Below are positions 7,301-37,271 of a stretch of 48,482 nucleotides of DNA, one piece after another; position 1 is the stretch's first letter; each line of letters starts with the position of its first letter. Location of the stretch: NCBI GenBank assembly GCA_041483195.1, contig JBGPFC010000033.1, positions 1-48,482 on the forward strand. Direction: 5' to 3'. This DNA comes from Candidatus Eiseniibacteriota bacterium. Lineage in GTDB: Bacteria > Eisenbacteria > RBG-16-71-46. The notes beneath the pieces were generated by a model that was not told where the DNA came from, did not search any database, and was given only the letters and a program-made list of their open reading frames with translations. The position numbers were made by a program, and so were the translations under genes.

Positions 7301-7718
7301 CTTTACGCTCGGCGCGCTCGCGCCCGGCACGACCTACTACTTCGCGCTGCGCGCGCGCGATCCGGCCGGCAACCGGGGCGCTTCATCGAACGTGTTCGGC
7401 CTGCTCACGCCGCTGGGACCGGCATTGCGCCGGCTCGGGGCCGGCGTCGCGGTCGCCAGCCGGATTCAGCCCGCGGCGCGCCCGGTCACGCTGTTGTGGC
7501 GCGGGGGACGCGGGGCATCGGGCGCGAACCAGCAGATCCGCCTCTACGACCTGAGCGGGCGGCTGCTGCGCGTGCTTCCGCTGCCGGCCGACACCGCGGG
7601 CAGCATTCAATGGGACGGCCGGGACCAGAGCGGACGCCTGGTCCCGGCCGGGATGATATTCGCGCGCCTGATCAGCGGATCCTTCCACGCTCAGGCGCGC
7701 GTCGTGCTCCTTCCGTGA
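4329..7718 (+). CDS. Secreted subtilisin-family (S8) serine protease with FG-GAP-like repeats, FN3-like domain and FlgD-Ig/T9SS-like C-terminal domain
   Basis: Signal peptide; triad ILDTG, HGTAVAG, GTSFSAPLVAG; AAGN oxyanion; DDDGNGYVDD calcium loop; GDVDGDG/GDLDLDG/EIDGDG repeats; WTAPGDDG...YYFALRARD; C-terminal IRLYDLSGRLLR...WDGRDQSGRLVPAG. Confidence 0.92.
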   Translation: MMRSRRMRHECFWLVIVGFGLAGPGPALALDLPIRHPGRDAIAAPAFLGDRLEIQLRPGPARDARRARAEPGVARFAALGVASIDRVAASLGGARFEHEFPGETPPGPGSDEPDFTAFYRVLLPAAADLEDALARFRALPDVASADPIAVLPVSAVPNDSLWSVSSWFYQPSRRDLHAPEAWDVTRGDTSIVVAILDTGVLSYHPDLGGEVAGSSGQMWTNWRERGGTPGVDDDGNGYVDDVAGWDFVNLGSGFGITVGEDWRDEDNDPSDFAGHGTAVAGVVGAITDNTIGVAGTAWNVRLMPLRIGWSSTALPGGEVDMSYAAAAIRYATRNGANVINCSFATLNLSGLYAAAAAAVQAGVAIVSAAGNDFQPHDLADRDDVIAVAASDPTDSIPAFSNTGAFVDLAAPGVNIASTALVHAGSDSIGSRQPFYQGDFTGTSFSAPLVAGGAALLQARRVALGLPPLLPMTLLLRLRETTDDIASRNPSTTGYGTGRLDLARALNDPPTSFARRGGARSVGPPVVFATRSGKSRVAIATFDSKLLMLDGASGDTLWSATLPGRPARQIAAADLGAGRGIGIFLGTANGRLAGYGLDGAPLAGFPVIGPGAFYAMSAGPALGDVDGDGVLDVVCGADDGSVWVWQADGTPFPNFPVSTGSLPLAGPIALAPGIGGPFAQIVAANRDGSVHLLLADGGEPAGWPVALASATAAPVIARLGARPDTVILVPSGTSLRALNVDGGARFAVSPGGTLSQDPALGDLDLDGFDEIVVASSSPNRVAALDSVGAMRADRGFPYALAAAPQGPPVIGDLQTRLQPGILVYAGSTQVALSDSAKLLAAFPKPGGAGATPTLAEIDGDGRTEVIAGTGPESSLYVYDAGAGTWHGGGNAWPTPRGNSARTGSRLYAPPLPAIDDVAPSAIGDLGADSIAVDTTGHVLVRLRWTAPGDDGSTGQAAGYELQSTTQKGAAGDFASGVRTDLPAPGAAGAIERFTLGALAPGTTYYFALRARDPAGNRGASSNVFGLLTPLGPALRRLGAGVAVASRIQPAARPVTLLWRGGRGASGANQQIRLYDLSGRLLRVLPLPADTAGSIQWDGRDQSGRLVPAGMIFARLISGSFHAQARVVLLP

Positions 7719-14970: not shown

Positions 14971-15138
14971 ATGGCCCTCAGTCCCGATCTCCTGAGCATT
15001 CTGGTCTGCCCGGCCTGCAAGGGCGACCTCGCATACAACGAGGCCGCTCAGACCCTCAGCTGCGACCGCTGCCGGCTGCGCTACAAGGTCGTCGACGACA
15101 TTCCGGTGATGCTGGTCGAAGAGGCCGAGAAGTTCTGA
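14971..15138 (+). CDS. Trm112/YcaR-family small zinc-ribbon protein (55 aa)
   Basis: Below ORF-track cutoff: [62 protein letters not shown]; family motifs ILVCP.CK and Y...D.IPVML..EA. Confidence 0.95.
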
Positions 15139-18100
15139 GCGATCGACACATCGCGCGCCCGCCGCATCGCACCGGCCGAGCCGGTCTCACGCTCGCCGTG
15201 GCGACGTTCCTCTGTGCCGCCCGCGCCGGCAGCGCCGGCGCCTCGCCCGCCGGCGTTCAGCTCCTGCCCACGGGCCCATCGCTGGTGCGGTTTGCGGTGG
15301 AGGTGCCGGAGGCTCGCGTGATTTCGGCCCCCGGCGCGAGCGACCTCTCCGAGGTGCTCATCGACGGATTCGGCAACGACGGCCCGCCCGGCGCGCCCGC
15401 GCTGCCGGTGCGCGTCATCCTGGTCGCGGTGCCGCCGACGGGCGACGTGCAGGTGCGCGCGAGCGCCAGCGGCGAGCGCTTCGCCGATGGCGTCCTGCTC
15501 GCCCCGATGGCCACCCTCGACCGCGGCGCCGAGGGCGAGCCCCCGCGCTACGATCGCTCGGCAGACGCCTATGGCGCGCGTGCCTCGCGCACGCCTCAGC
15601 CGGCGCGCGTGCTCGGCGTTTCGTGGATGCGCAACCAGCGCGTCGCGAGCATCGCCGTCTCGGCCGCCGACTACGTCCCGGCCACGCGGCACCTCGCCCT
15701 CTACCGCCGTGTCGACGTCGAGCTCGGGGTCGCCGCGGCCGGCAATGCGGGTCCGCCGGCCGAGGCCATCGATCCGTTCGAGGAGGTCTATCGCGAGGTG
15801 CTGGTCAACTACGAGCAGGGCCGGCACTGGCGGCGTCCCGCGGGCGGGCGTTCGTTCCCGGGGGCCGGATTGGATCGTGCGACCCTCGATGCGCTCGCGG
15901 CGCCCGCGGTGCCGGAGACCAGCGTCTACGTGGGACGCACCTGGATCAAGATCGCGATCCCGCGCACCGGATTCTACAAGCTGGATTTCGGGCAGCTCCG
16001 CAACTTCTCGCTGTTCAGCGCGCTGGTTCGCCCCGACAGCGTGCGGCTCGATTCGGTGCGGCTCTTCACCTGGCCCGGAGTCCCGGTCCTGCCGGAGGCG
16101 AACTACTGCGACACCTGTGATTTCCGTGAGGTCGCGATTCAGTTCGCCGAGGATGGCGACGGATTGTTCAACCACAACGCCGACGCCTTCTACTTCTTCG
16201 CGATGGGCGCGAGCGACTGGGCCGATCTCTACGATCCCGCCCAGCCCGACACCGTGTTCATCAACCATCCTTACGAGACGAAGAACTACTACTACCTCAC
16301 CGTCTCCACCAGCGATCTGCCGGTGGGGGGGGGCCGTCAGCGCATCGCGCAACGGTCGGGTCAGGTGCAGAACGTCGCCGGTCGTTCCCCGTCGCCGGCG
16401 GGTGTGGGGTTCACGACCCCCGCCACGTTCGAGGCCCGGGTCCACGCGGAGCTGGACATCGAGTATTTCCCCGATCTGTCGCCGCTCTACTACGGGCCGG
16501 CCGGCCCCTTCAGCGATGCGTTCTGGGAGAAGTGGTTCTGGCGAAGCATGAGCCTCGGCAACCTGTTCGCTCCCACGGTCGACGCGATCGGGATCGATTC
16601 GACCCAGGCCGGCAGCGTGCGCATCCGGCAGTGGGGTCTGCCCGACCCGAGCGACACCTGTCTCTACTCCGTGCGCAATGCCCAGCACCTGCTCGACGTG
16701 GCGGTCAACGGGGTGCCGTTGCCGCGCGAGGGGTGGGATGGAACCGCCGCGTTCTCGTTCGAATCCGCGACCGCCGCGCTGCTCACCCACAACTCGGTGA
16801 GCCTGACCATTCCGGTGATTCCGGGGTGCGGAAAGCGCTTCGATCGGAGCGCGCTCGCCTGGATCGAGCTTCGCTATCGGCGCCGCTTCGTCCCGATCAA
16901 CAACGAGCTCGCGTTCGACACCGACCCGGGCGGCGGGAACTACCTTTTCGATATTTCCCCCTTCACCTCGCTCGTCCCTCCCCGCGTGTTCGACGTCACC
17001 GACGCCTACGCGCCGGTCGAAGTGGTGAACCTCGGCTATTCCGATCTGGGCGGGGGCAACTGGGGGCTCTCGTTCCAGAGCATCGAGACCGAGCGACACC
17101 GATATCGGATCGTGCGCGATTCCAGCATCATCAAGGTTCCCGACCTGAGCGTTTTCGCCGCGCCGGCGACCAGCCTGCGCAATCTCCGCAGCCGCACGCG
17201 GGGCGCCGATTACGTGCTCATTTACTACGACGGCTTCCAGGCGGCGGCCGACTCGCTGATGCGCTGGCGGCAGTATCGATTGCCCCTCACGGGCCAGTCG
17301 GCTCCGTACGAAGTCGAGGAGATCCCGATCTCGGCCCTCTACGATCAGTTCTCGGGGGGCCGCACCGATCCGTCCGTGATCCGCAATTTCCTGCGTGCCG
17401 CATTCTTCAACTGGAGCAAGCGTCCCGCCTTCGTGACGCTGTTCGGGGACGCGTCATACGATTTCAAGAACCTCAAGGGCCTGGCCGGCGCCGGACAGCC
17501 GGGCACGCTGGTGCCCTCTTACGAGAACGGGTTCGCGATCAACAAGCAGTTCGCGACCGACGATTGGCTGCTGAACGTCGACGACGCGACGGTCAACATC
17601 CCCGACTTCTTCGGCGGGCGGATCCCGGCCGGCGATCCCAGGACCGCGCTCGACTTCGTGATGAAGAAGGTGCTGCTCTACGAGCGCTCGGCCCCGCTCG
17701 GGGCGTACCGCGACAAGGTCATGCTGATCGCAGACGACAACCTGCAGGGCGCGAAGGACGATCCCCTCCACTGGGCGCACCTGCGGCAGACCGCGGTACT
17801 CGACACCGCGCACACGCCGGCCCACATCGATCGCGCCTACGTCTACCTGCACACCTACCCCGACGGGCCGGGGAACACCAAGCCCGGAGCGAAGGCCGAT
17901 ATCAAGCTCAACCTGAACAACGGGGTGGCGATGTCGAACTATATCGGCCACGGGAGTCCCTTCAAGCTGGCGGACGAGACCGTGCTGAGCGACGTCGATG
18001 CCGGCACGTTCACCAACGCCACGCGCCCGACCCTGTTCGTCGCGGCGTCGTGCGATGTCGGGAAATTCAACGACCCCACGGTGCAGAGCCTGGGGGAGCG

Positions 18101-19502
18101 GCTGCTGCTCGCGCCATCGGGCGGTGCGATCGCCGTGATCTCGGCCACCGAGCTCGCGTACAGCGACTTGAACGTCGAGCTCAACTGGGCGTTCGACGAT
18201 CAGCTCTTCGACCGCTCGAGCCCCTCCGGGCAGTACGCGAAAGGCATCGCGCAGTCGCTGCTGATCGCGAAGATCCTCACGTCGAACAACAACGATTTCA
18301 ACATCACGAACAACAGCAAGTATCAGGTCATGGGCGATGCCGGGACGCAGCTGAACCTGCCGCGACTCTGGGCGGACGTCGCGGTGTACGGGTGCGACAC
18401 GTGCACCGTGCCGCTCACCGAAATCCAGCGCGGCACCACCGTGAACTTCCGCGGACGCGTCCTCGATCGCCCGGGGGGCGCGCCGGTGTCGTACGACGGC
18501 AAGGCCGACATGCTGATCGAGGATTCGGCGCAGCGCGAATCCGCGCCCGACTGCGCGCTCTTCCCCGGCTGCAACAATCCGCCGATCACCTACTACGTCG
18601 GGGCCGGGCCCATGTATCGCGGAGACGTGGTGGTGAAGGCGGGAGCGTTCCAGGGCAAGTTCGTGGTGCCGTTCGAGGCGAAGGGCGGGGCGCGCGGCCG
18701 GGTGCGCGCCTACCTCCAGGGTCGGGCGGCGGGGCAGGCGTTCGACTCCGACGGTGCGGGAAGCATCCCCACCCAGGTCTCGCCCGGACCACCCGTGAGC
18801 GGCGACGACGAGGGACCCCGCATCATCCTCTCGTTCGCGAGCGGATCCACCACGGTCAAGCCCGACGCGGTGCTGCGTATCGACCTCTACGACCCGAGCG
18901 GCATTCTCACCACTGCCCACACGCTGCAGAACGGGATCGTGATCACGCTGGACCAGAACACCACCGCCCGGGTGGACGTCACATCCAGCTTCCGCTACGC
19001 GACCGGGTCGTACACGACCGGGTCCGCCAGCTGGCAGCTGCCCCATCTCGCGGCGGGCAAGCACAGCATCAAGGTGTCGGCGGCCGACAATCTCGCCGCG
19101 GGGCTCAACGCCGCTTCGCACCGCTCCACCGCGGTGATCGAGATCGACGTGCAGGACGCCCCGCCCCTCAACATCCTGAACACGTACCTGTTCCCGAATC
19201 CGATCGAATCCGATCTTTCGGGGCGTTCCGGTGGGCAGTTCGTGGTGGATGCGCGCGGCGACAGCGTGAACGCGCTGCTCAACATCTACACCGTCTCCGG
19301 GAGGCTGGTCCGGCGGCTGCGCTCCCTGGGCCGGCAGGGGCAGATCCAGATGCCCTGGGACGGGATGGACGACGAGGGCCATCCCCTTGCGAATGGCACC
19401 TATCTGTTCCGCGTACAGATCAACGCCCGCCAGGCGGACGGCGAATCCAGCGCCCGACAGCGGGCGGCGGCGGAAGGGCGGTTCGTGGTCCTGAATCGCT
19501 GA
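15135..19502 (+). CDS. porU: PorU-like C25 (gingipain-family) cysteine peptidase / T9SS sortase
   Basis: C25 propeptide-like [48 protein letters not shown]; catalytic NYIGHG and ASCDVGKF; C-terminal FPNP...[10 protein letters not shown]...[18 protein letters not shown]. Start inferred at CTG overlapping the trm112 stop; alternative GTG 15198. Confidence 0.88.
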
Positions 19503-19610
19503 TTTGGAGTGGAAAAAAATGTCTGGAGCGAGCCCGGTGCTCCCGGTGTAGTATTCGGGCTGGGAGTCCGCTGCGCCTGCCGACGTCCGCCCGGAAAGGG
19601 TCTTTTCACC

Positions 19611-20558
19611 ATGCGTTTGACGATTGCGATCCTGACACTCATCTCCGCTATCTCGTTGACGGGCAATGCCCTCGCCCAGGGCACCGGCCGCGAGCTCGAC
19701 ATCCAACCTGGGGCTCGTCAGAACGGGCTGGGGGCCGCGGGAGTTGCGCTGGCAGACGACGCGACCGGCGTCACCTGGTGGAATCCGGCCGGCCTCGGGT
19801 TCGTGAGCCGGACCGCCCTCGAGCTCACCTATGCGCAGCTTGCCCCGGGTCTCGCCGACGACGTCAACTACAACTACCTCACGTACGTCCATCCACTCGA
19901 GGGTTGGGGCGCATTCGGCGTCGGCATCGTGTTCGTCTCGCTGGGACAGATCGACGGCACGGATATCAACGGCAACCCGACCGGCAGCTTCGGCGCGAAC
20001 GCGGTCGCGCCGGCGGTCTACTACGGAACGCGCGTTCTGCCCGATTTCTCGGTGGGCGCCTCGCTCCGTTACGTGCGCCTGCAGTACGCGCCCAACAGCC
20101 TGAGCGGGGTGGGTTCGACCTTCGCGCTCGATCTCGCGGGGCTCTACCGCATCCCGGCCGCGCGACTCAATTTCGGCCTCAATGTCCAGAACCTCGGTCC
20201 GAGCATCACCTTCATCAACGAGGACCAGGCGAGTCCGCTGTCTCGAAACGTGAAGGTCGGGGCCGCGTGGGAAGTTTATTCGAGCGAGCAGGTGGGAGTG
20301 ACGGTCGTCGAGGACTTCAATCAGTCGCTGGTGACCGACGTGTTCCGCACCTACAACCATGGCCTCGAGCTGCGCGTCGCGCAGCAGCTGGCCGGGCGCA
20401 TCGGCTGGTACTCCGATCCCTACGGTCACATCTCGGATCTCACCTTCGGCCTCGGCGTGAACTGGGGAGGACTGAGTCTCGATTTCGGCAGTATTCCCCA
20501 GGCGAAGGATGAGGGCCTCGACAACGTCAAGAAGATCACGCTGGGCTATCGTTTCTAG
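19611..20558 (+). CDS. porV: PorV/PorQ-family outer-membrane beta-barrel
   Basis: Signal peptide; LDIQPGARQNGLGAAGVALADDATGVTWWNPAGL signature; DLAGLY; LNVQNLGP; terminal ITLGYRF; directly downstream of porU. Confidence 0.88.
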   Translation: MRLTIAILTLISAISLTGNALAQGTGRELDIQPGARQNGLGAAGVALADDATGVTWWNPAGLGFVSRTALELTYAQLAPGLADDVNYNYLTYVHPLEGWGAFGVGIVFVSLGQIDGTDINGNPTGSFGANAVAPAVYYGTRVLPDFSVGASLRYVRLQYAPNSLSGVGSTFALDLAGLYRIPAARLNFGLNVQNLGPSITFINEDQASPLSRNVKVGAAWEVYSSEQVGVTVVEDFNQSLVTDVFRTYNHGLELRVAQQLAGRIGWYSDPYGHISDLTFGLGVNWGGLSLDFGSIPQAKDEGLDNVKKITLGYRF

Positions 20559-20717
20559 CAGGCCGCCGATCGCAACCGGATGAGGAGCGCGCTTGCCCCC
20601 GCGGCAAAGCCGGCGTGCCACCTCGGTCCTTCACGCGTTTCCGGCAGCGCCCGAAGCGTGTTCGCGCCATCCCGCGGCGCGGTTCGCCACGGCGCTTACC
20701 ACCTCCACGCCTCGGTG

Positions 20718-23700
20718 ATGCGCACGATCCTTCGCCCTCGATTCCTCCCGCTCGCTCTCGCCGCCCTGCTCGCGTCCGCTCCGGCGCACGCGGGGGAGGG
20801 GCTCGTCGTACGGCCGGCGCTCCCGCGCACCGCGGCCGCGGCGCGCGCCGCGCGCGCCGGCACGTCGCCCGCGGGGGGGACGCGCGCCGAATGGCTGCGA
20901 ATCCAGGGCGAGCGCGAGCGACATTGGCGTGGCTTCCGCGACCAGATCGGCGCGCCCGAGGTGGACTGGTCCGCGCGCGCGGCGCGCCGCAGCGGATGGA
21001 AGCCGTCGCCGGGGCCCGCGCGCAACCCGCATCTGCTCGGCGCCAACCCGCACGTGGCCGCGGCCTCGACGCCTCCCGAGACGCTGCGCATCGCGATCCT
21101 GCGTGTCGACTTCCGCACCGACCGGGGCGGAGGCGCTTCCACCGGCGATGGCCGCTTCGATCTGGGCGCGCTCGCGCCGGGAGCGCCTCCGATCGATCCT
21201 GCGCCGCACGATCGCAAGTTCTACCTGCGGCACCTCGAGGCGCTGAGTCGGTTTTACTCGGCGGAGAGCTACGGGCGTGTGGTCGTGGTGGGCGACGTGT
21301 GGCCGCGGGGACCGGGCCAGGACAGCCTCGCGTACTCGATCAGCGACATGGCGGACCTCGGCCCGTGGGAATTCGGGCCGGGCATCTACCGCGCGGCGGT
21401 CCACATGTTCCAAACCATGCTGTATGCCGCCGACACGCAGGCGAAGGCGCTGGGCGACTCGATCCCGTGGCGTGACATCGACCGCATCATCGTCATCCAT
21501 GCGGGAAGCGACCTGCAGAGCGATCTCCGGCAGGACAGCAAGGAAGACATCCCGACCTTCACCCTCGGCGTCACCGACACCGACCGCGTGGTCTTCGACA
21601 AGGGCAGCCTCGACACGGTCCTCGTCGACCGTGCTGCGTTTATTCCCGAGACCATCAACCAGGACGGATACTACGGCGCGATCAATGCCGTGCTCGCGCA
21701 CGAATGCGGCCATCTGTTCTTCGGGTTCCTCGATGTCTACGACATCGAGAGCGGATTTCCCACGGTGGGATATTGGAGCCTGATGGACAGCGGAAACCTC
21801 GCGGGCGCCGTGATCCCCCAGGCCAACGGCGACGACATTTTCGCGGTGGGGCTCCTGCCGCCCAGCGTCGATCCGTTCCAGCGCTTCCTCACGACCGACG
21901 TGCTCGATTTTGCCGAGGTCTCCTACGCCGACACCATGGCGCTGCGCGACGGGGAGCGCTTTCCGGACGTGCGCAGCGTGCGGCTCACCTCCGACGAATA
22001 TCTGCTGCTCGAGAATCGATGGATCACCCCATTCGACACCCTGCTGCTCGACCAGGATCCCGAGACGCACGTGATCCTCGGCCCCGAGCACCCGGATCGT
22101 TTCGAGTACGATTCGCTGCTGCCGGGGAGCGGCATTCTGGTGTGGCACGTTGACGAGAGCGTGATCCCGTTCTTCGAGGCCTCGCTCCGCATCAATCCGG
22201 ATTTCGGCCTGAACTCGAACTTCCGGCGACTCGGGCTCTCGGTCATCGAGGCGGACGGCCTCGGGGACCTGGGCGACCCGGGCTCGCCGTTCATCCTCGG
22301 CAGCTACCGCGATCCGTACTTCCGCAGCAACAACGCGGTGCTGAGCGACGAGACCGAGCCCAATCTGATCCCCAACGTGCGCACCCGGCCCCACCTGCGA
22401 CTCGAATTCCTCGACGAGCCGAGCGACTCGATGCGGCTGATCGCGAGTCGCGCGTGGCAGCTCCCGGGATTCCCGATTCAGGCGGATTTTCCGCCGGGCG
22501 GCCCGCAGCTGCTCGCGATCGACGCGGACGGAGACCCGAGCGATGCCTCGCGGGAGATCTGCTGGGCGGGCGGCGACACCGCGCGCTCCGACAGTTCCGC
22601 GCTGTTCGCCGTGCGCCGCAACGGTCGGGGACTCTTCGGATCCTCGCTGGCATTCGCGAACCTCGACACGCGACCGCGCCCGGTGATGGCCGCGATCGCG
22701 ACCGGGACGGGTGGCGGCGCGGCCACCGGGCCTTCGTGGTTCGCGGTCTCGACGTTTCCCACCGGGCCCGACCTCGCGACGCCCGGCGGACGCGTGTGGA
22801 TGATCGACGAAACCGGACAGCCCCGGCCGGGATGGCCGGCCGCGCTGCCGGCGCTGGTCTCGACGCCCCCGGTAATCGCGGGCGCGTACCCCGGCGCGAT
22901 GGTGTTCGTGGGCTGCGAAGATGGCCGCGTGTACGCGATCGATCTCGATGGCCACGTGCATCCCGCCAGCGATCCGCCGCTCGCGGCCGGGATGCGCGGC
23001 CGGCTCGCGGTGGCGGCGGTCAGCGGCATCACGCTCCCCGGAGGGACGCCGGCGTCCGGGTGGGCGGTCGCGGCCGGAAGCGCCTCCGGTGACGTCGCGG
23101 TGTTCACGATCGATCCGGCCGCTGGCGCCTCCGCCCCGCTGAATCGCGTGCAGGGGTGGCCGCAGCGTCTCATGAGCGGCACGAGCTTCGAGCCCGATTT
23201 CCTGTGGATCGACTTCGATGGGCTGGGGACCGCGAGCTCGAATCCCTCCGGCTGCGACGCCTCGCTTCCGGAGCTGGTGGCCCACCACGCCAATCGGCTA
23301 TGGGCCTTCTGTGCGACCGGGCGATCGTTGCCGGGCTGGGGCCGGGTCGGCGGTGACACGCTGGTCGCGTCGCTCGGCGCGGGCGATCCCGATGGCGACG
23401 GCTTTCCCGAGGTGCTCACCCAGACGCCCGACTCGCGCGTGTCGTTCATCAACCAGAGCGGTTATCCGTCGCCCGGCTGGCCACGCGCCGGATCGAAGGA
23501 GGGCGAGCTCGAGGAAAATCCCGATCTCACCTATCCGCGACCCCCGATGCGATTCCCCACGATGAGTCCGGCGCTCGCCATCGATGTGGACGGAGACCAT
23601 GCCAGCGAGATCGTCGCGCTCAACACCAGCGGCATCCTCGCCGCGCTGCGGGCGGATGGTCGAACTCCCGAGGGCTGGCCGCTCGCGACCGGCTCCGGAG

Positions 23701-24188
23701 CGGGGGGATCGCCGGTCGCCGCCGATCTCGCCGCCGATGGACACCTGGAGATCGTCGCGCCCGACCGGCTCGGCGAGCTGGTCGCGTTCTCGCTGCCCGT
23801 CGATTTCGACGCGCTGTCCGATTCCTGGCCCATGCTGGGCGGGGATCCGGGCCGCACCTCGGCGCTTCCCGGCACCCGCATGGGGGCGACGCCCGCCGCG
23901 GCGCGCGGTCCGCTGGTGCATGGCTCGCTCAAGGTGTTCCCCAATCCCGCGCGGCGGCGGCCGGTCTCGTTCGCATATCAGCTCAGCGAGCCCGCCGACG
24001 TCGAATTCCGCATCCTCGACCCGTCGGGGCACGAGGTGGCATCATTCGTCCGCAATGGTCATCGCGCGGATAATCTCGAGACGTGGGATCCGGGCCGGCT
24101 GCCGGCCGGCCTCTATGTCGCGCAGCTGCGATTTCGCGGCAATGGACACGAGATGGTGCAGATGATTCCGGTGGGGTTGATCCGATGA
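20718..24188 (+). CDS. Secreted M6 (immune inhibitor A-like) metalloprotease with FG-GAP-like repeats and T9SS-like CTD
   Basis: Signal peptide; IVIHAG; AHECGHLFFGFLDVYD; Met-turn GYWSLMDSG; EYLLLENR; GILVWHVDE; GDPDGDG/DVDGD repeats; C-terminal LKVFPNP...FRILDPSG...LPAGLYVAQL. Confidence 0.85.
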   Translation: MRTILRPRFLPLALAALLASAPAHAGEGLVVRPALPRTAAAARAARAGTSPAGGTRAEWLRIQGERERHWRGFRDQIGAPEVDWSARAARRSGWKPSPGPARNPHLLGANPHVAAASTPPETLRIAILRVDFRTDRGGGASTGDGRFDLGALAPGAPPIDPAPHDRKFYLRHLEALSRFYSAESYGRVVVVGDVWPRGPGQDSLAYSISDMADLGPWEFGPGIYRAAVHMFQTMLYAADTQAKALGDSIPWRDIDRIIVIHAGSDLQSDLRQDSKEDIPTFTLGVTDTDRVVFDKGSLDTVLVDRAAFIPETINQDGYYGAINAVLAHECGHLFFGFLDVYDIESGFPTVGYWSLMDSGNLAGAVIPQANGDDIFAVGLLPPSVDPFQRFLTTDVLDFAEVSYADTMALRDGERFPDVRSVRLTSDEYLLLENRWITPFDTLLLDQDPETHVILGPEHPDRFEYDSLLPGSGILVWHVDESVIPFFEASLRINPDFGLNSNFRRLGLSVIEADGLGDLGDPGSPFILGSYRDPYFRSNNAVLSDETEPNLIPNVRTRPHLRLEFLDEPSDSMRLIASRAWQLPGFPIQADFPPGGPQLLAIDADGDPSDASREICWAGGDTARSDSSALFAVRRNGRGLFGSSLAFANLDTRPRPVMAAIATGTGGGAATGPSWFAVSTFPTGPDLATPGGRVWMIDETGQPRPGWPAALPALVSTPPVIAGAYPGAMVFVGCEDGRVYAIDLDGHVHPASDPPLAAGMRGRLAVAAVSGITLPGGTPASGWAVAAGSASGDVAVFTIDPAAGASAPLNRVQGWPQRLMSGTSFEPDFLWIDFDGLGTASSNPSGCDASLPELVAHHANRLWAFCATGRSLPGWGRVGGDTLVASLGAGDPDGDGFPEVLTQTPDSRVSFINQSGYPSPGWPRAGSKEGELEENPDLTYPRPPMRFPTMSPALAIDVDGDHASEIVALNTSGILAALRADGRTPEGWPLATGSGAGGSPVAADLAADGHLEIVAPDRLGELVAFSLPVDFDALSDSWPMLGGDPGRTSALPGTRMGATPAAARGPLVHGSLKVFPNPARRRPVSFAYQLSEPADVEFRILDPSGHEVASFVRNGHRADNLETWDPGRLPAGLYVAQLRFRGNGHEMVQMIPVGLIR

Positions 24189-24991
24189 GGCGGGCACCGT
24201 GCCGCGCGACGCGGCTCGTGATCTCGCTGGGGTTGGCGGTGTGCGGCGCGCTGTGCGCGGCCAGGGCGCACGCCGAGCTCGGCGCCGGCTCGGCGCTCGC
24301 GCTGCCCCTGCTCGCGAGCGGCGAGAAGCCTGAGCTGATCCTGGCGCAACGCACCATCGATCGTGCGTGGGGACCGTCCGAGGACTCCACCTACGTCGAG
24401 GTCGCGGTTCCCGGCTGGCGCTCGGAGGGCATCGCGTTCGCGATGTCCGCGGCGATTCCCGGCGCGGGGCACGCCTACGTCCACGAGAGCAGCGGATTGT
24501 TCTTCGCGGTGGTCGAGGTCGCGGCCTGGACGCTTCGCCGGCACTGGCAGGGTCGTGCCGATCGTCTTCACTCCTGGGCGCTCGGGTTCGTTGGCGACCC
24601 GCGCGACAGCAACGCGACCTGGTCGTTCCGCCGCTGGGAACGGGTCACCGACAAGGACGCGGCCGACCTGAGGGCGCTCTACGCAGCGGACCCCGAGACG
24701 TTCTTCGCATGGATCGCCCGCGACCCCCAGTACCTGGCGGGTTGGTCCACCAACGCGATCCCGCCGCGCGACGAATTTCGCAATGCGCTGGATCGCGGCG
24801 AGGGCATGCTCGCGCGCAAGCGATATGCGACGACCGCGATCTGGATCAATCACCTGCTCGCGGGGCTCGACGCGCTGCGTGCCGCGCGCATCGCCAACCT
24901 GCCGCTCGGGCGCGATCTCGAGCTCAAGCTCGGTGCGGGCTGGCGGGGCGAATCGCCGACGCTGCTCGCCGCGGTGGGGAGGCGCTTCTGA
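24185..24991 (+). CDS. Exported/membrane protein of unknown function (DUF5683-like S.xxPGxG motif), paralog A
   Basis: ATGA overlap with upstream gene; signal peptide; SAAIPGAGHAY...FFAVVEVAAW; AIWINHLLAGLDA; ends AVGRRF. Confidence 0.75.
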   Translation: MRRAPCRATRLVISLGLAVCGALCAARAHAELGAGSALALPLLASGEKPELILAQRTIDRAWGPSEDSTYVEVAVPGWRSEGIAFAMSAAIPGAGHAYVHESSGLFFAVVEVAAWTLRRHWQGRADRLHSWALGFVGDPRDSNATWSFRRWERVTDKDAADLRALYAADPETFFAWIARDPQYLAGWSTNAIPPRDEFRNALDRGEGMLARKRYATTAIWINHLLAGLDALRAARIANLPLGRDLELKLGAGWRGESPTLLAAVGRRF

Positions 24992-25935
24992 CGCGCCGGG
25001 TGATTCCCTCGGCGCTCGCGCTGGCCGGGCTGCTCGCCGCCGCGGGCGCGCGCGCCGACGTCACGGCGGGCGCGGCCGTGGCTCCCGGCGCGGCGATCCT
25101 CGCCGGGGTCGCGGCCGATTCCCTCGCGAACGCCGCGCGCGCGGGTGAAGCCGCCGGCCCGCCGCGCCCCTCAACCGCGGCGGCCGCGCCGACCACCGAC
25201 ATCGCGCCGCGCATGATCTCGGCGCTCGCGCTGCCCGCGCCCGATCTCGAACTGCTCGGGCTGGGATCGCGTCGCGGGCGATCGATCACGTCCCGGGATC
25301 GCGGCGGCGCGGGGATGCGGGTGCTGAGCGCCGAGCGCGCGCGAATCCTGCTGCGTTCGCTCACGCTGCCGGGCTGGGGGCAGGCGACGGTGGGTCATCA
25401 CCGCGCGGCGGGCGTGTTTCTGATCGCCGAGACCGGAGTGTGGGCTTCGTTCACGGCATTCCGCATCCAGCAACAGATGCGCCGCGATTCGTACGAGCGC
25501 ACCGCGCGGCTGGTCGCCGGCATCGACCTGCGCGGGCGCGACGAGGAGTTTCACCGCATCGTGGGCTCGTTCCTGAGCAGCGACGAGTACAACCATTTCG
25601 TCGTGTTCCGCGACGCCGCCAACCTCTTCTACGACGATCCCGTGAAGTACCGGGAGTACATCGCGAAGCACGAGCTGCACGGCAAGGATGCCTGGACCTG
25701 GCCGAGCGTCGAGAGCCTGTTGCGTTATCGCGGCCAGCGGAAGAAATCGCAACGCGCGGCGCAGCGGGCCAACACGACGCTCGCGATCGCGGTCGCGAAC
25801 CGGCTGGTCAGCGCGGTGCATGCGACGCGCGTCGCCGGACAGACGCCCCACCCGCACGCGTGGAATCTCGAGATCGCCCCGGCCCCGGGCGACGACGCCA
25901 CCGCGTTTCGCGCGGGAGTGCGCGCCCGCTTCTGA
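24988..25935 (+). CDS. Exported/membrane protein of unknown function, paralog B
   Basis: CTGA overlap with GGGGAGG SD 5 nt upstream (alternative GTG 25000); signal peptide; SLTLPGWGQA...FLIAETGVW; IAVANRLVSAVHA; ends GVRARF. Confidence 0.75.
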   Translation: MTRRVIPSALALAGLLAAAGARADVTAGAAVAPGAAILAGVAADSLANAARAGEAAGPPRPSTAAAAPTTDIAPRMISALALPAPDLELLGLGSRRGRSITSRDRGGAGMRVLSAERARILLRSLTLPGWGQATVGHHRAAGVFLIAETGVWASFTAFRIQQQMRRDSYERTARLVAGIDLRGRDEEFHRIVGSFLSSDEYNHFVVFRDAANLFYDDPVKYREYIAKHELHGKDAWTWPSVESLLRYRGQRKKSQRAAQRANTTLAIAVANRLVSAVHATRVAGQTPHPHAWNLEIAPAPGDDATAFRAGVRARF

Positions 25936-25953
25936 GGGGGAGGCAGTTCTCGC

Positions 25954-26898
25954 GTGACGATCACCCTGTGGTTGGCCGTGGCGCTCGCGGCGCCGGGCCC
26001 CGTCGGGCAGGCGGGCGCCGATACGCTGCCGCTCGTGATGCGTCCATCCGAAACCGTGGTCGCCCGCGGTGACGGCCGCGGCCAGGCGATCGAACCCTCC
26101 GGCCTCGCGCTCGACGCGTTCGGCCGGCTCTACGTGGCGGATGCGACGCTCCATCAGATCCAGCGCTTCGATGCGCGCGGCGGATTTCTCGGCACCGCGG
26201 GTTCGCTCGGGAGCGACCCTGGCCAGTTGCGCCGCCCCGGGGCGCTCGCCCTGCTGGGCACGCTGAGCGTTGCGGTGCTCGATCTCGAGAACCGGCGGGT
26301 CGTGACCTACGACTTGTTCGGGCGTCTGGTCGGCACGCTCATCGATCTCGCCGATCCCGTGCTGCTCGACCCGCTCGGGCGGGTGGACCCGGTCGCGCTC
26401 GCGGCAGACCGGGGCGGTGCGCTGGTGATCGCCGACGCCGATCGTGATCGCGTGCTCTCTTTCGATTTCAGCGGCCGCTTCCTGCGCGCGATCGGGGGAC
26501 TGGGCACGTCGCCCGGGTCGTTCCGCGGTCTGCGCGGCGTCGGCTTCACGCCACGCGGCGAGCTGGTCACCGCGGAGCGGCTCAACGCGCGGGTGCAGCG
26601 ACTCGACGCCGGCGGCCGGCCGGCCGCGACCTGGCCGATCGATGTGCGCCCGGGACGCGGAGCGCTGCCGGTGGCGGTGGACGACTCGTCGCGCGTCGCG
26701 GTCGCCGACGAGGCCTCGGGCCGGTTGTGGCTGTTCGACCCGTCGGGACGCCTGCTCGCCTCCCTCGGTGGATTCGAGGGGCCGCGCGCGCTGGCGTTCG
26801 CGCGGGACGGCGCGCTGCTGGTCGCCGAGGGGCGAGCCGGGCGCGTGCGGCGGGTGACGATCGAGCCGCGCGTTCGCCCGCCGGACTCCGGGGAATAG
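25954..26898 (+). CDS. Exported NHL-repeat beta-propeller protein
   Basis: GGGGGAGG SD; signal peptide; PSGLALDAFGRLYVAD...IQRFD, GSDPGQLRRP, PVALAAD.GGALVIAD, GPRALAFARDGALLVAE. Confidence 0.88.
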   Translation: MTITLWLAVALAAPGPVGQAGADTLPLVMRPSETVVARGDGRGQAIEPSGLALDAFGRLYVADATLHQIQRFDARGGFLGTAGSLGSDPGQLRRPGALALLGTLSVAVLDLENRRVVTYDLFGRLVGTLIDLADPVLLDPLGRVDPVALAADRGGALVIADADRDRVLSFDFSGRFLRAIGGLGTSPGSFRGLRGVGFTPRGELVTAERLNARVQRLDAGGRPAATWPIDVRPGRGALPVAVDDSSRVAVADEASGRLWLFDPSGRLLASLGGFEGPRALAFARDGALLVAEGRAGRVRRVTIEPRVRPPDSGE

Positions 26899-26901
26899 GC
26901 G

Positions 26902-29900
26902 ATGCCCGAACGCGCGGGCGCCCTCCTCGCGGTCGCGCTCGCGATGGTTCTGCTCGCGTCGCCACCGCGTGCGCGCGCCGCGAGCGATGCCGGCTGCGGC
27001 GTGTCTGCGATTCCGGTGCGCGAGGGCGCCGGCGTCTACCACCTGCCGCACGGGTTCATCCGCGCCGGAAGCGATTCGGTGTGGACGCGACGCGGCGCGC
27101 TGACGCGGGGCACGGACTACGTGCTCGACCGGTTGCGCGGCGAGTTGCGGCTGCTCGGCCGCGTGCCCGCCGGTGAGACGCTGTGGGCAGCCGGTTGCTG
27201 GCTGATCCATCCGCCCCCGATCGATCTCCAGATCAACCACTATCGGCCGCTCGCGCTCGCCGCGCCCGAGAGCGCGAAGACCGGAGCCATCGAGGTGCCG
27301 GTCCGGCCGGCGACGCACCGCGATCCCGGCACCGCGCCCGCCGGCGCCGCGCTGAGCGTGAACGGCAACAAGACCATCGCGATCGAGTTCGGCTCATCGC
27401 AGGACGCGTTCCTGCGTCAGAGTCTCGATCTCGCGGTGAGCGGAACGCTCGCGCCCGGCGTCACGCTGACCGGCGCGCTGTCGGATCGCAACACGCCGCT
27501 CACCTCGTCGGGCTCGACACAGGATCTGCAGGCGCTCGACCGCGTGCTGATCGAGTTGCGCACGCCGCAGGCGAGCGCGGCGCTGGGCGACGTGACCCTC
27601 AGCATTCCGCACGGTGATTTCGGGCGCATCGAGCGGCGGCTGCAGGGGGTGCGCGGCGAGTGGGGAGTTGGAGGATTTCAGGGCACGGTCGCGGCGGCCA
27701 GCGCGCAGGGTGAATATCGCCGCCTCCAGCTGTTCGGCGTCGAGGGCAGGCAGGGTCCCTACGTGATGACCGACCGCGACGGAAACCCCGGCGTCTCGGT
27801 GGTCGCGGGCAGCGAGGTGGTGACCGTGGACGGCGCGCGGATGACGCGCGGCGAGAGCGCGGACTATTCGATGGACTACGAGCGCGGCCAGCTCACCTTC
27901 TCGAATCGCCGGCCGATCTCGTCGGCCAGCCGCATCACCGTCGAGTATCAGTTCGCGGTGAATCGCTATCGGCGCAACCTCGCGGCGTTCGATGGACGCT
28001 GGGAGGGCAAGACGATTCACGGGTTCACGCGCCTGCTGAGCGAAGGCGACGATCGCGGACGCCCGCTCGACATCACGCTCGACGCGCAGGACCGTCTCGC
28101 GCTCGCGTACGCTGGCGACTCGCTGGGCCGCGCGCTGGGCCCGGGGGTCACGGCCGGGGGCGGCGACTACGACACGGTGCGCGTCGCCGGCGTCCTGATC
28201 TATGCGTTCGCCAGACCCGACTCCGGCCGGTTCGCCGTGCGATTCGCCAGGGTGGGACAGGGGCTCGGCTCCTACGCCGACTCGGCGAGCATCGCCGGGC
28301 GCATCGCCTACAAGTACGTCGGCCCCGGAAGCGGTGCCTTCGTGATCGGACGCGCGCTCCCGCTGCCCGAGAGCCATCAGCTCTGGGCGGGGGGCGGGGG
28401 CGTACGGCTCGGGGCGCTGACACTCGAGACCGAAGGCGCGGTCTCGCGCCAGGACCTGAATGTGTATTCGCCGATCGACGACGGGGACAACGTGGGCCAT
28501 GCGGGGCGCGCCGCGCTCGCGATCGAGGGCGCGGCGCCGGGCGCGCTCGGTCATGCGGGCCTCAGCGTGACCGCGCGCGCCGTGGACCGCCGCTTCGCGC
28601 CGTTCACGCGTCTCGAGCGCCCGTTCGCGCAGGAGGACTGGGGTCTTCCGGTGGACGCGGACCTCGAGCATCAGCACCGGCTCGAGGCCGCGGGCTTCGT
28701 GAAGCCGCGTTTCGGGGGCGACCTCCGCGCCACGCTCGCGCGGCTCGATCTTCCCGGCGGCTTCACATCGCTCCGCCGCGGGCTCGACTGGACGCGCGAC
28801 GGAATGCTGGCGACGCAGCTCGCGATCGAGCGCGCGGACGCGCGCGATCCTCACCGCCGCTTCCGCGACGGCGGCCGCGAACGGGCTCGCGGCGAGCTGC
28901 GGCTGCGCACCGCGTGGCTCGAGCCCGCGTTGCGCGGCGAGTTCGACGCGCGCCGCGTTCCGAGCGACAGCGTGAGAGTCGGAGCGCGGGTGCGGGAGGG
29001 AACGCTCGAGCTGGCGAGCGCCCGGCGCTTCGCATGGCACGCGGTGGCGGGATATGGATTGCGGCGCGACGCGCTGCGGTCCGCGACCGGCTTCGACGAT
29101 CAGAGCGAGGCTCGAACCCTGCGCTTCGCGCTCGACGGCCCGCCCGGGGGCCCGCTGGGTCTCGCGCTCGCCTACCAGCGGCGCGACCTCGAACCGCTCG
29201 CCAGCCCGGTGCGCACCCGGAGCGAGCTGGCGAGCACGCGGCTGCGATACGACGATGCGAAGCGCGGCCTGAGCGCGAGCGCGAGCCTCGAAGTCACAGC
29301 GGAGGGCGAGAACCGGCGGGTGCGCACGCTCACGTTCGTCGGCTCGGGACAGGGACCCTACGACGCGCTGGGAAACTTCGTGGGCAGAGGGGACTACGTG
29401 CTGGGGATCGGTGTGAGCGATGCGCTCGAGCGCGTCGCCCGCACGGCGCTCAGCGCCCGCATGGCGTGGCAGTTCGGCGAATCCGAAGCCTGGCGTGGCT
29501 CGCGGGCGGAGTTCGATTTCGAGACCGACGCGCGCCGCCGCGGCGAGTTCCGCCCCGGCGACGCCCTGGTCTCGCCCGGGGCGGTGCTGGCGGACGCCTC
29601 GCTCGCGCGCGGGAGCGTGCTCCAGCGCCTCGATACGGAGATCGCTCCGGATTCGCGCGCCGGCGCGCTGCGTCTCCTGATCGAGCGCCGGGTGAGCGCC
29701 GATCGTTCCTTCGACAACTTCGGGCAGAGCCAGGACGAGCGCACGGTGTCGCTGCGCTGGCGTGCGCGCCCCGGGGCGGTGGTGAGCACCGAGGTCGAAG
29801 CGCGGCTCCGCCGCCAGGAAGCCGCGCAATTGCTGCTGGGCGTTCAGCCCTATCGACGGGTGCTGCTCGAAAACGGCGGCACGGCGCAACTGGTCGTGAC

Positions 29901-30249
29901 CCCCGATGCGCGATTGCGCGCGGTGGGGGCGCTCGAGGCCTCGTGGGTGAGGCCCGAGGATCAGAACGACGTCACGCGCACGGTGCGGGTGGGGCCCGAT
30001 CTCGGGTTCGCGCTCGGCGCGCGGGGCCGGCTGGAGCTCGGCGCACGTCGGACCTTCGTGAGCGGCCCGCCGGTCGCGGGCCTGCTGCCGACCGCCGATC
30101 CGCTCGCGCCCCCGCACTGGGAAGGCAACGCGCGGATGGACTACCGGGTGCGCGAGACCACGACGCTGGGCGTGAGCTTCAATGCTCGAGACGTGCCGCA
30201 CGCGGCGTCGCGTTACACCGGGCGCGCCGAGCTCCGGGCGTTCTTCTGA
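26902..30249 (+). CDS. Large outer-membrane protein with SprA/Sov-like segments (1115 aa)
   Basis: Signal peptide; QSLDLAVSGTL...GDVTL...LQGV; two GS..V....L.RG.DY..DY..G.L.F modules; amphipathic beta pattern; terminal ELRAFF. Confidence 0.65.
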   Translation: MPERAGALLAVALAMVLLASPPRARAASDAGCGVSAIPVREGAGVYHLPHGFIRAGSDSVWTRRGALTRGTDYVLDRLRGELRLLGRVPAGETLWAAGCWLIHPPPIDLQINHYRPLALAAPESAKTGAIEVPVRPATHRDPGTAPAGAALSVNGNKTIAIEFGSSQDAFLRQSLDLAVSGTLAPGVTLTGALSDRNTPLTSSGSTQDLQALDRVLIELRTPQASAALGDVTLSIPHGDFGRIERRLQGVRGEWGVGGFQGTVAAASAQGEYRRLQLFGVEGRQGPYVMTDRDGNPGVSVVAGSEVVTVDGARMTRGESADYSMDYERGQLTFSNRRPISSASRITVEYQFAVNRYRRNLAAFDGRWEGKTIHGFTRLLSEGDDRGRPLDITLDAQDRLALAYAGDSLGRALGPGVTAGGGDYDTVRVAGVLIYAFARPDSGRFAVRFARVGQGLGSYADSASIAGRIAYKYVGPGSGAFVIGRALPLPESHQLWAGGGGVRLGALTLETEGAVSRQDLNVYSPIDDGDNVGHAGRAALAIEGAAPGALGHAGLSVTARAVDRRFAPFTRLERPFAQEDWGLPVDADLEHQHRLEAAGFVKPRFGGDLRATLARLDLPGGFTSLRRGLDWTRDGMLATQLAIERADARDPHRRFRDGGRERARGELRLRTAWLEPALRGEFDARRVPSDSVRVGARVREGTLELASARRFAWHAVAGYGLRRDALRSATGFDDQSEARTLRFALDGPPGGPLGLALAYQRRDLEPLASPVRTRSELASTRLRYDDAKRGLSASASLEVTAEGENRRVRTLTFVGSGQGPYDALGNFVGRGDYVLGIGVSDALERVARTALSARMAWQFGESEAWRGSRAEFDFETDARRRGEFRPGDALVSPGAVLADASLARGSVLQRLDTEIAPDSRAGALRLLIERRVSADRSFDNFGQSQDERTVSLRWRARPGAVVSTEVEARLRRQEAAQLLLGVQPYRRVLLENGGTAQLVVTPDARLRAVGALEASWVRPEDQNDVTRTVRVGPDLGFALGARGRLELGARRTFVSGPPVAGLLPTADPLAPPHWEGNARMDYRVRETTTLGVSFNARDVPHAASRYTGRAELRAFF

Positions 30250-31955
30250 TGGCCGCGCGCATACACCTGCCCGTTCTCGCGCTGGCCGCGGTGGCGCTGG
30301 CCGCGCGTTGCGCCGCGGCCGCTCCCGCGACCCGCGTCGAATATCGGGGGCGGGTGCTCACCGATCGCCAGGTGGAGAGCATGCTCGCGCCGCCCCTGCG
30401 GAGTCCCACGGACTCGACAGCGCTCGCACGGGCGCTCGACGAGATCGTGGGGCAGCTCCAGGATGCCGGTTATCTCGATGCGCGCGCGGCCGCGCGGTGG
30501 GACAGCCTTCCCGGCCCGCGTCTCGCGATCACGATCGACGAAGGTCCGCGCTACCGGCTCGGCACCGTACGATTCGCGATGCCCGCGAGCCTCGACTCCA
30601 TGCGCTTCGCATCGGCGCTGGGAGTCGCACCGGGAGACCGCGCGTCACCGCGGGGCGTGGGAGAGGCGGTCGATCGCGCGCTGCGCGCGGTGACGGACCG
30701 CGGGTACCCGTACGCGTCGCTCGGCGTCAGCGGATGGGACGCCGACAGCGGCGTGGTCGCGCTCCGTCTCTCCGGCGCGCTCGGGCCGCTGGTGACGATC
30801 ACCCGAGCGCGCGTCGAAGGCCTGCGGGTCACCCGAGACGCGATCGCGCAGAAATCGATGGGGCGCCTCGCCGGGCTCCCGTACAATCGCGAGGCGGCGC
30901 TGATCGCGCGCGATCGGCTCGTGCAGCTCGGACTGTTCAGCCGCGTGACGCTCGAAGGGCTCGAGGGCGAGCCGGAATGGAATCGGGCGCAGCTCGTGTA
31001 TCACGTCGATGAGCCGCGCTACAACCGGTTCGAGGGCGTGGTCGGGGTGCAGGGCGATGCCGGGACGGTGGGTCTCGCGCAACTCGATCTCGGCAATTTG
31101 CTCGGCACCGGCCGCGCCCTTTCGCTGCGCTGGCAATCCCGCGGCCGCGGGCTCGCGGACTTCGGGGCGCGCTACGCAGAGCCGCTGCTGTTCGGCGCGC
31201 CGCTCCGGCTGGAGGCGGCGGTCGATCAACAGGTGCAGGACACGATCTTCGTTCGGACGAGGTGGGGCGGGCGCGTCCAGTTCGCGCCGTCCCCGCAGGA
31301 GAAGCTGGAAGCCGGCCTCGAGGAGGAACGGGTGGTCCAGGAAGCGGGCGAGGTGGAGCAGGCCCAGCTGCAGAACACGGTCTTCGCCCTCGAACGCGAT
31401 ACGCTCGATCCGCCGCTTTCCCCGCGGCGCGGCGCGCGCGTTCGGCTCCAGGCGACGCAGATCTTCAAGCGCGAGCGGCTTCGCCCGGAGGGGCAGCGCA
31501 CCGCGCGCGAGAGCGCGGTCGCGATCCGAAGCGCATGGAGCCAGGCCTTCACGAGCGCGAGCGGTCTATCGCTCGAGCTGCAGGGCGACGCGCGCTTCAG
31601 CTCGCAGCGCGTGCTGCCGCTCTACGAGCGGACCCCGGTCGGGGGCGCCACCACGTTGCGCGGGCACGATGAGGAGGCGTTCCGGGCCGATCGTGTCGCG
31701 CTGTCGCGCCTCGAGTACCGCTGGTTCCTCGCAGAGGCGCAGCGCGTCTTCCTGTTCTGGGACCATGCGTGGATGGCGACGCGGGAGCCGCTGGTCGCGG
31801 GCGGCGACCGCCTCGAGACGCTGCAGCGCGACGGCCTCGGCTTCGGACTGCGGCTCGAGGCGAACGGCGGACTGATCGGCGTCGAATACGGCCTCGAGCC
31901 GGGCAAGGCGCCACTCGATGGGAAGATCCACCTGCGGCTGGTCTCGACGTTCTGA
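30249..31955 (+). CDS. Omp85 (BamA/TamA-like) outer-membrane protein with POTRA domains
   Basis: TGATG overlap; POTRA-like GYLDA...IDEGPRYRL, RGYPYA, LVQLGLFSRV; NLLGTGR; lid loop VGGATTLRGHDE; LEYR; terminal RLVSTF. Confidence 0.88.
   Translation: MAARIHLPVLALAAVALAARCAAAAPATRVEYRGRVLTDRQVESMLAPPLRSPTDSTALARALDEIVGQLQDAGYLDARAAARWDSLPGPRLAITIDEGPRYRLGTVRFAMPASLDSMRFASALGVAPGDRASPRGVGEAVDRALRAVTDRGYPYASLGVSGWDADSGVVALRLSGALGPLVTITRARVEGLRVTRDAIAQKSMGRLAGLPYNREAALIARDRLVQLGLFSRVTLEGLEGEPEWNRAQLVYHVDEPRYNRFEGVVGVQGDAGTVGLAQLDLGNLLGTGRALSLRWQSRGRGLADFGARYAEPLLFGAPLRLEAAVDQQVQDTIFVRTRWGGRVQFAPSPQEKLEAGLEEERVVQEAGEVEQAQLQNTVFALERDTLDPPLSPRRGARVRLQATQIFKRERLRPEGQRTARESAVAIRSAWSQAFTSASGLSLELQGDARFSSQRVLPLYERTPVGGATTLRGHDEEAFRADRVALSRLEYRWFLAEAQRVFLFWDHAWMATREPLVAGGDRLETLQRDGLGFGLRLEANGGLIGVEYGLEPGKAPLDGKIHLRLVSTF

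Positions 31956-35586: not shown

Positions 35587-35590
<4 letters not shown>
34073..35590 (+). CDS. hutH: Histidine ammonia-lyase
   Basis: GTGA overlap; [21 protein letters not shown]-forming [37 protein letters not shown]. Confidence 0.97.
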
Positions 35591-37269
<1,679 letters not shown>

Positions 37270-37271
37270 CG

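Follow-up and report, generated by a model that had tools for sequence, protein, structure and literature searches.

Type IX secretion systems (T9SSs) have been described in Bacteroidota such as Flavobacterium johnsoniae and Porphyromonas gingivalis, and their reference parts are SprA/Sov, PorV, PorU, PorZ, PorQ, the GldLM/PorLM motor and the GldKN/PorKN ring. According to the available text of PMC10994853, cargo in F. johnsoniae enters SprA and binds PorV without energy, extraction requires energy, and the GldLM motor is thought to be required to pull carrier and cargo off SprA. PorU exchanges the C-terminal domain (CTD) for a surface anchor, as stated in the accessible part of PMC12398890. 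The accessible portions of other papers report complete T9SSs in Bacteroidetes only (PMC4793230), treat SprA as present throughout the Fibrobacterota-Chlorobiota-Bacteroidota (FCB) group except Chlorobiota (PMC12611786), and describe PorV, SprA and Plug without other T9SS parts in Ignavibacterium and Melioribacter (PMC11705866). Here, we describe an eight-gene locus on a 48,482-bp stretch of DNA (the window, contig C33 in our analyses) from a genome of 4.17 Mb with approximately 70% G+C and 96.8% completeness. Its phylum was taken from homologue names, as the named close homologues of the 1115-aa protein of the locus are mostly from Candidatus Eisenbacteria, in agreement with an initial annotation that had proposed a non-Bacteroidota genome. 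Our verdict is a T9SS variant that is motor-less and has accessory parts not described before and, with moderate confidence, we regard the locus as the sorting and accessory half of such a type IX-like secretion system.

Operon layout and conservation across Candidatus Eisenbacteria

The locus spans positions 15135-31955 and is composed of the following genes:

15135..19502, + strand: PorU, a sortase-like, CTD-cleaving C25 peptidase with its own CTD (NF033707; His and Cys motifs)
19611..20558, + strand: PorV-type carrier barrel (NF033709)
20718..24188, + strand: M6-family metalloprotease with FG-GAP repeats and a CTD (HExxH-D kept)
24185..24991, + strand: mA, a DUF5683-related exported membrane protein with a C-terminal beta-hairpin and Phe (weak PF18935 matches in orthologues)
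24988..25935, + strand: mB, a paralogue of mA with a helical hairpin and a tip domain (structure model and distribution)
25954..26898, + strand: exported NHL beta-propeller (PF01436), directly upstream of the barrel gene
26902..30249, + strand: 1115-aa predicted barrel, read as a compact SprA paralogue (model, profile and structure comparison)
30249..31955, + strand: short Omp85-family protein with POTRA domains and a barrel (family match; distinct from the BamA and TamA-like genes)

As the initial annotation had it, this span is filled by eight co-oriented genes, all with a coding-type G+C content at third codon positions (GC3) and separated by 108, 159, -4, -4, 18, 3, and -1 bp. Genes were called with a simple codon model, which gave 3337 genes genome-wide, and long alternative reading frames in other frames or on the minus strand were rejected for low GC3 or lack of a family match. 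Over positions 22000-31955, a search for RNA holders listed none. The five Phe endings among the eight proteins, also noticed at the outset, are well above the genomic background since only 125 of the 2616 called proteins of at least 180 aa end in Phe or Trp. The overlap with the upstream stop codon, the reading frame and the position of the signal peptide suggest that porU (15135) and mB (24988) start at CTG; these starts overlap an upstream TGA and resemble the ATGA overlaps found elsewhere in the operon. The edges of the operon are not sharp because it continues unbroken into dnaE-accA-trm112 upstream and dinG downstream.

The gene order was the same in 40 loci, chosen for family spread and long contigs, that cover all 17 sampled families of Ca. 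Eisenbacteria. Searches of these loci with tblastn retrieved the barrel and Omp85 genes in all 40, porV and mB in 39, mA in 35, porU in 34, the M6 protease gene in 33 and the NHL gene in 30, one locus being truncated where its contig ends and porU frequently lying beyond the 20-kb stretch. With profiles built from the same 40 loci, the counts rose to 40 for NHL and to 38 for mA. Phylum-wide, the barrel gene was matched in 117 of 121 genomes, of which 115 were kept; the two dropped matches covered only a short segment shared with SprA. Hence, the expectation that the downstream genes co-occur with porU and porV across the phylum was borne out, and within Eisenbacteria we observed neither a complete canonical T9SS nor a loss of this co-occurrence.

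Sorting components, the SprA translocon and the motor question

The PorU protein scored 460.3 bits against NF033707, over the cut-off of 420, and the motifs of its catalytic His939 and Cys973 were kept in 35 of 35 aligned sequences. PorV scored 183.4 bits against the PorV/PorQ subfamily model NF033709 (cut-off 90) and 117.5 bits against the PorV equivalog model, below its cut-off of 250. It is the best PorV match among the seven PorV-family genes of the genome and adjoins porU. The porU-like identity first assigned was thereby supported, and the gene first labelled porV is best described as PorV-type. The M6 protease, whose HExxH-D motif is intact, also bears a sorting tail and is likely a cargo; being truly absent from 6 uncut loci, it is dispensable in some families.

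Three window proteins carry a CTD, as previously counted: PorU, the M6 protease and an S8 protease encoded outside the locus. Using our own profile seeded from the PorU and M6 tails, we found 145 C-terminal matches (144 at E<1e-5), representing approximately 4% of the 3337 called proteins, among which none had a solely internal match. Elsewhere in the genome, three co-oriented blocks (C7:107688-114435, C11:52357-59451, C14:26726-35296) combine a PorV-family gene, a gene for a CTD protein and a large receptor-like gene, presumably TonB-dependent-receptor-like, which suggests private carrier-cargo-receptor sets. On C23 (185-2128), a 647-aa protein in which a PorV-family barrel is fused to an extension at the C terminus is encoded directly 3' of a CTD-protein gene.

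A full-length SprA of 2070 aa is encoded on contig C8 (52347-58559) and scored 523.6 bits against TIGR04189, for which the cut-off is 200. SprA was found in 118 of the 121 genomes of the phylum (113 over cut-off), and in 19 of 20 loci from Eisenbacteria, our own (C8:52347-61139) among them, sprA and lptF/lptG-like genes are arranged divergently. The same divergent arrangement was seen in 5 loci of another phylum. A PorZ-like CTD protein of 753 aa (C2:95401-97662) scored 84.1 bits, below the cut-off of 260; its gene sits in a polysaccharide synthesis cluster, which would fit surface-anchor delivery.

No PorK, PorL, PorM, PorN or PorZ family member was over cut-off among the 13 window proteins scanned, as initially reported. 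In the whole genome, the motor and ring were likewise not found; the SprA gene on C8 and the PorZ-like gene on C2, the latter below cut-off, lie outside the window. Family searches with hidden Markov models (HMMs), on which all motor and ring negatives are based, gave no match for GldM, GldL or GldN in this genome, and a single GldK match (in this genome, where alone GldK was sought) was rejected as a ring subunit, being partial, below cut-off and inside an 887-aa frame on C3. PorP/SprF gave no match in this genome, in a search that had no positive control. Across the 121 genomes, GldM was found in none at E 0.001, GldL in none over cut-off (one weak match inside a 1185-aa frame) and GldN in none, the latter search having no positive control at the genome level although the GldK and GldN models pass their cut-offs on proteins of locus L264, described below. 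As a control, the same GldM search detected 37 of 151 genomes over cut-off in a Bacteroidota-group sample. In terms of canonical T9SS membership, SprA, PorU and CTD cargo are present while the GldL/GldM motor and GldK/GldN ring were not found; the locus works like a T9SS and falls outside the canonical family on motor and ring.

With SprA, PorU, PorV and about 4% of the proteins tagged as cargo, and no detectable motor, the question is what supplies the energy, and the operon names candidate parts. Besides Tol-Pal, the genome has two gene sets that, from similarity, we take to be ExbB-ExbD-ExbD-TonB-like (C24:31559-37534 and C1:153888-162811), each beside TPR-type genes. In 2 of 20 loci (L209 and L214), exbB-exbD-exbD lies directly 3' of the barrel gene, which we treat as a lead only.

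The 1115-aa barrel and its accessory proteins

The protein encoded at 26902..30249, initially called SprA-like, had no Pfam family over threshold and scored 17.8 bits against the SprA model TIGR04189, far below the cut-off of 200. Its structure was modeled with AlphaFold2 from 68 collected homologues (pLDDT 87.7, pTM 0.76). The model has 38 long antiparallel strands over residues 150-1114, with turns and loops alternating in consistent parity, two insertions on the loop side that are predicted to be extracellular, and a predicted small N-terminal beta domain. We therefore predict a single-chain barrel of about 38 strands, with a range of 36-40 because strands were counted from the secondary-structure string. 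According to the accessible text of a recent preprint (10.64898/2026.03.07.710327, 2026), SprA is the largest known barrel, and barrels of more than 26 strands were excluded from that work. The present, unannotated barrel is predicted to be as large as or larger than SprA at half the length.

The top two Foldseek matches of the model were SprA structures (E 3e-8 and 1e-7, TM about 0.2). In a separate structural comparison with VIA, 687-712 residues were aligned with SprA across the whole barrel at a root-mean-square deviation of about 9 and Z-scores of 14-16.6. A profile comparison with 21 Eisenbacteria SprA sequences gave collinear matches between residues 148-353 and SprA 173-440 (92.8%) and between 298-383 and SprA 679-762 (97.2%), while the N-terminal domain (45-103) matched the corresponding SprA beta domain. 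Telling against this relationship, the structural scores with SprA are modest (TM 0.21-0.27; Z 14-16.6), and AlgE and OprD tie with SprA on Z, although such smaller barrels align over only about 230-370 residues. No PDB sequence matched the barrel profile at E 1, and an Atlas search returned unnamed clusters only, with SprA_N at 0.87 as a lead. Because of the structural and collinear profile matches, the protein is best described, from sequence and model, as a compact SprA paralogue and not as the translocon orthologue. The latter reading was rejected, a full-length SprA being encoded on C8. The initial SprA-like label therefore stands as distant homology and does not hold as SprA family membership.

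Conservation is highest in the N-terminal strands, and strands 3 and 4 of the model are short, features that would fit a lateral opening. A complex prediction of residues 146-850 (cut to fit) with PorV scored 0.00, which is no evidence either way. With an E-value limit of 0.001, the barrel family includes 4704 clusters at 50% identity, although part of these may represent SprA retrieved through the common domain. Outside the two sampled phyla, the few source names were Zixibacteria, Latescibacteria and Gemmatimonadota, and scanning for loci with a single distant homologue of the barrel gave no result. A 1784-aa protein (C27:18635-23989) matched the barrel profile weakly (E 7e-4) at the conserved N-terminal strands and is possibly a third, more distant large barrel.

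The Omp85-family protein encoded next to the barrel scored 65.7 bits against the BamA model TIGR03303, below the cut-off of 297. Since a separate, true BamA gene is present on C24, it was rejected as the main BamA; a TamA-like gene is found on C9. The short Omp85 has a conserved RG motif at the loop-6 position, and we consider it a candidate dedicated assembly factor. Protease-propeller-Omp85 fusion proteins are encoded at C9:40632-43877, C5:96771-99572 and L266:2456-5734, and an equivalent fusion lies between the M6 and mA orthologues beside sprA in loci L266, L267 and L269. In the syntenic loci and in locus L208, the NHL gene immediately precedes the barrel gene, and the NHL protein is a candidate barrel plug or adaptor. 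Its orthologues had no consistent lipoprotein box (4/30 by a simple pattern, with uncertain starts).

The two membrane proteins mA and mB are paralogous (hhalign 99.8%), as had been noticed initially. Neither window protein matched PF18935 (DUF5683), while weak matches, with a best E of 7e-5, were obtained for 24 of 32 mA and 14 of 31 mB orthologues; for one DUF5683-like protein from a GldM-positive genome, only the N-terminal part was matched. The mB model (pLDDT 91.8) consists of a long helical hairpin, a small tip domain and a C-terminal beta-hairpin, a predicted fold that would suit an oligomer. Foldseek returned nothing for it at E 0.001, and its structural matches were limited to generic helical hairpins (best Z of 9.3); weak GldM/PorM rows (E ~1) were set aside as chance. 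A tree of 40 sequences separates mA and mB with 100/100 support, and each side includes sequences of both phyla. The pair is therefore old. Overall, the suggestion that uncharacterized members of the locus could be new components has held up, as several look like undescribed accessory parts.

Co-occurrence, proposed mechanism and relation to known systems

To place the barrel outside Eisenbacteria, we used one fixed set of 151 genomes, drawn from the phylum to which an Ignavibacteria-type genome belongs. Searches detected SprA in 120 genomes, the barrel in 103 and GldM in 37, leaving 83 of the 120 SprA-positive genomes without GldM over cut-off. The barrel was present in 103 of 120 SprA-positive and in 0 of 31 SprA-negative genomes. 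It was also present in 29 of the 37 motor-bearing genomes, making it deletable and purifiable in cultured Bacteroidota. The short Omp85 was matched in 91 genomes, of which 89 were kept after removal of two BamA-size frames, and all 89 have the barrel. For mB, 68 genomes were matched and 66 kept (two matches covered the motif only), corresponding to 66 of the 83 SprA-positive, GldM-negative genomes and to none of the 37 GldM-positive ones. The mA profile, which also matches mB, retrieved 62 genomes, none of them GldM-positive by table reading. Some orthologues also lie near T9SS genes. The Omp85 orthologue precedes gldM by 6-8 kb in 6 of the 16 genomes that have both GldM and this orthologue, with a verified order in locus L264 of Omp85, a small gene, hemD, porP, gldK, gldL, gldM and gldN. 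In 5 loci, selected because their coordinates lay close together, the M6 and mA orthologues adjoin lptG/F-sprA; in L266, porX follows downstream.

In the motor-less system that we favor, proteins with a CTD and a signal peptide (144) would cross the outer membrane through the SprA of C8. The window PorV would then carry cargo out, the M6 protease being one such cargo, and PorU would cut the CTD and either release the cargo or link it to a surface glycan. Homology to F. johnsoniae-type components supports these loading, carrier and CTD-removal steps. For the other proteins, roles are proposed from homology, model shape and distribution. The 1115-aa barrel would provide another large pore that depends on SprA, its most likely role being that of an auxiliary channel through which some of the cargo or its carriers exit or are handed over. 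The short Omp85 could assemble or partner the barrel, and the NHL propeller could plug or adapt it. The mA and mB proteins might oligomerize in the membrane via the C-terminal hairpins, and may replace the missing GldKN hub. Energy, if needed, would most likely come from an ExbB-ExbD-ExbD-TonB-type set (C24 or C1), a link that is a guess.

Several observations weigh against this motor-less system. The block often follows dnaE-accA, which makes the operon only partly secretory, and none of the genes linked to the locus in this genome encodes a motor. The barrel is not needed for canonical secretion because 17 of 120 SprA-positive genomes, including 8 of the 37 with GldM, do not have it, and 14 barrel-positive genomes have no short Omp85 at E 1e-30. 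No Omp85, NHL, mA, mB or PorV gene was found around the barrel gene in 80 Ignavibacteria-type loci (45 with full 10-kb flanks) or in 30 loci with 1.5-kb flanks, NHL adjoined the barrel in only 1 of 20 wider loci, and mB orthologues had no T9SS machinery neighbor in 9 loci. Moreover, all co-occurrence counts are among kin, the GldM-positive and the SprA-negative genomes probably forming one or two clades each, so each pattern may be a single event. Since these genes are mostly unlinked outside Eisenbacteria, that they form one machine is inferred.

The solitary barrel genes and the presence of dnaE and accA in the operon would also be expected if two unrelated modules simply adjoin, with porU-porV-M6 devoted to sorting and the barrel, the Omp85 and the propeller, perhaps joined by mA/mB, doing another outer-membrane job, for example export or uptake of polymers or large proteins. 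The barrel would then follow the range of SprA through a common need for an FCB-type barrel assembly machinery (BAM). Indeed, according to the available text of PMC12611786, BamG/BamH, SusCD and SprA were lost together in Chlorobiota, which could produce such nesting without a common function. However, the Omp85 orthologue upstream of gldKLMN in 6 genomes, the mA and M6 orthologues beside sprA in 5 loci, and SprA as the closest structural and profile relative of the barrel argue for a connection, and we consider two unrelated modules rather unlikely, while taking the idea seriously.

It is quite improbable that GldLM and GldKN counterparts are present and merely too diverged for family models, which would make this a canonical T9SS with scattered genes. 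Such a motor would satisfy the energy needed for substrate release from SprA in Flavobacterium, as described in the accessible part of PMC10994853, and would be in keeping with HMM-only searches and with the divergence of Eisenbacteria T9SS proteins, whose PorV and PorZ-like members are below equivalog cut-offs. Yet none of the 121 genomes gave a GldM or GldN match and GldL gave one weak match, while SprA and PorU pass their cut-offs, the sole GldK match is a partial, sub-cut-off one in a long frame, and the 83 SprA-positive genomes without GldM in the other sample show the same absence. Lastly, that the 1115-aa barrel is itself the translocon of a compact, self-contained locus, as its SprA homology, its size and its adjacency to porU-porV across the phylum could suggest, is very improbable, and its role as sole translocon is largely refuted by the full-length SprA on C8 and in 118 of 121 genomes and by a barrel never found without SprA in 151 genomes while SprA occurs 17 times without it. 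The initial view of the locus as a self-contained secretion system accordingly fell, with the translocon encoded on C8 and the barrel gene usually alone in the Bacteroidota group.

A broader form of the motor-less reading is speculative and, as a whole, unlikely. It holds that the motor-less T9SS is widespread and possibly the original form in the FCB group, with two giant pores, SprA and its paralogue of about 38 strands, which would be the largest known single-chain beta-barrel and would have its own Omp85 assembly factor. An mA/mB oligomer would replace the GldKN hub and couple to an ExbBD-type motor; Bacteroidia would later have swapped mA/mB for GldKLMN, many keeping the second barrel. 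If true, this second barrel of a two-pore, motor-less original form would be open to study in existing model strains.

Two further genes of the window touch on the locus or its cargo:

14971..15138, + strand: Trm112-like zinc-ribbon gene, its stop overlapping the porU start; in 25 of 40 syntenic loci
4416..7718 (start approximate), + strand: S8 protease with FG-GAP, FN3 and CTD, outside the locus; further cargo

The former, which we take to be Trm112-like, is probably outside the secretion system. After dinG, positions 34073-40167 encode an ammonia-lyase, urocanate hydratase, imidazolonepropionase and formiminotransferase, presumably for histidine utilization; hutH was found in 0 of 40 related loci, within the stretches fetched. 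The later part (40222-48482) includes a TPR protein weakly similar to SgmX (68.7 bits, cut-off 1800), a PHP-domain gene and what we take to be a ComEA-like gene and pilB/pilT-type ATPases, and an outer-membrane-like protein of unassigned family is encoded at 43596-45392.

A full-text literature search, mostly without subscription papers, returned nothing on an Eisenbacteria T9SS, this barrel family or the function of DUF5683. No publication on the second barrel, on its Omp85 or on the mA/mB pattern was found, while T9SS parts outside Bacteroidota are already known. Compared with DUF5683 (PF18935), mA and mB share the N-terminal helix-PG-G motif and the C-terminal hairpin ending in Phe, but have a large central helical domain. 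Like BamA, TamA and TamL of the Omp85 family, the short Omp85 has POTRA domains, a barrel and the RG motif at the loop-6 position; unlike them, it is under the BamA cut-off and its orthologues track the giant barrel. The collinearity of the barrel with SprA/Sov (TIGR04189; PDB 6H3I, 8GL6, 8GL8) spans strands 1 to 7 and the small beta domain, and the two barrels align from end to end. The 1115-aa protein differs in being approximately half as long, with most of the cap missing, in its about 38 predicted strands instead of 36, in its score of 17.8 bits for a cut-off of 200, and in being co-present with a true SprA. The partial T9SS of Ignavibacterium and Melioribacter (PMC11705866) likewise has SprA and PorV without the motor, whereas the available text of that paper names no PorU operon, second barrel or mechanism. 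In contrast to the T9SS of F. johnsoniae and P. gingivalis, no motor, ring or PorP/SprF carriers were found here, and porU-porV share an operon with five genes that are not among the T9SS components described in the accessible literature. Nevertheless, SprA and PorU over curated cut-offs, the adjacency of porU and porV, many cargo proteins with a C-terminal sorting tail and a PorZ-like CTD protein are common to both.

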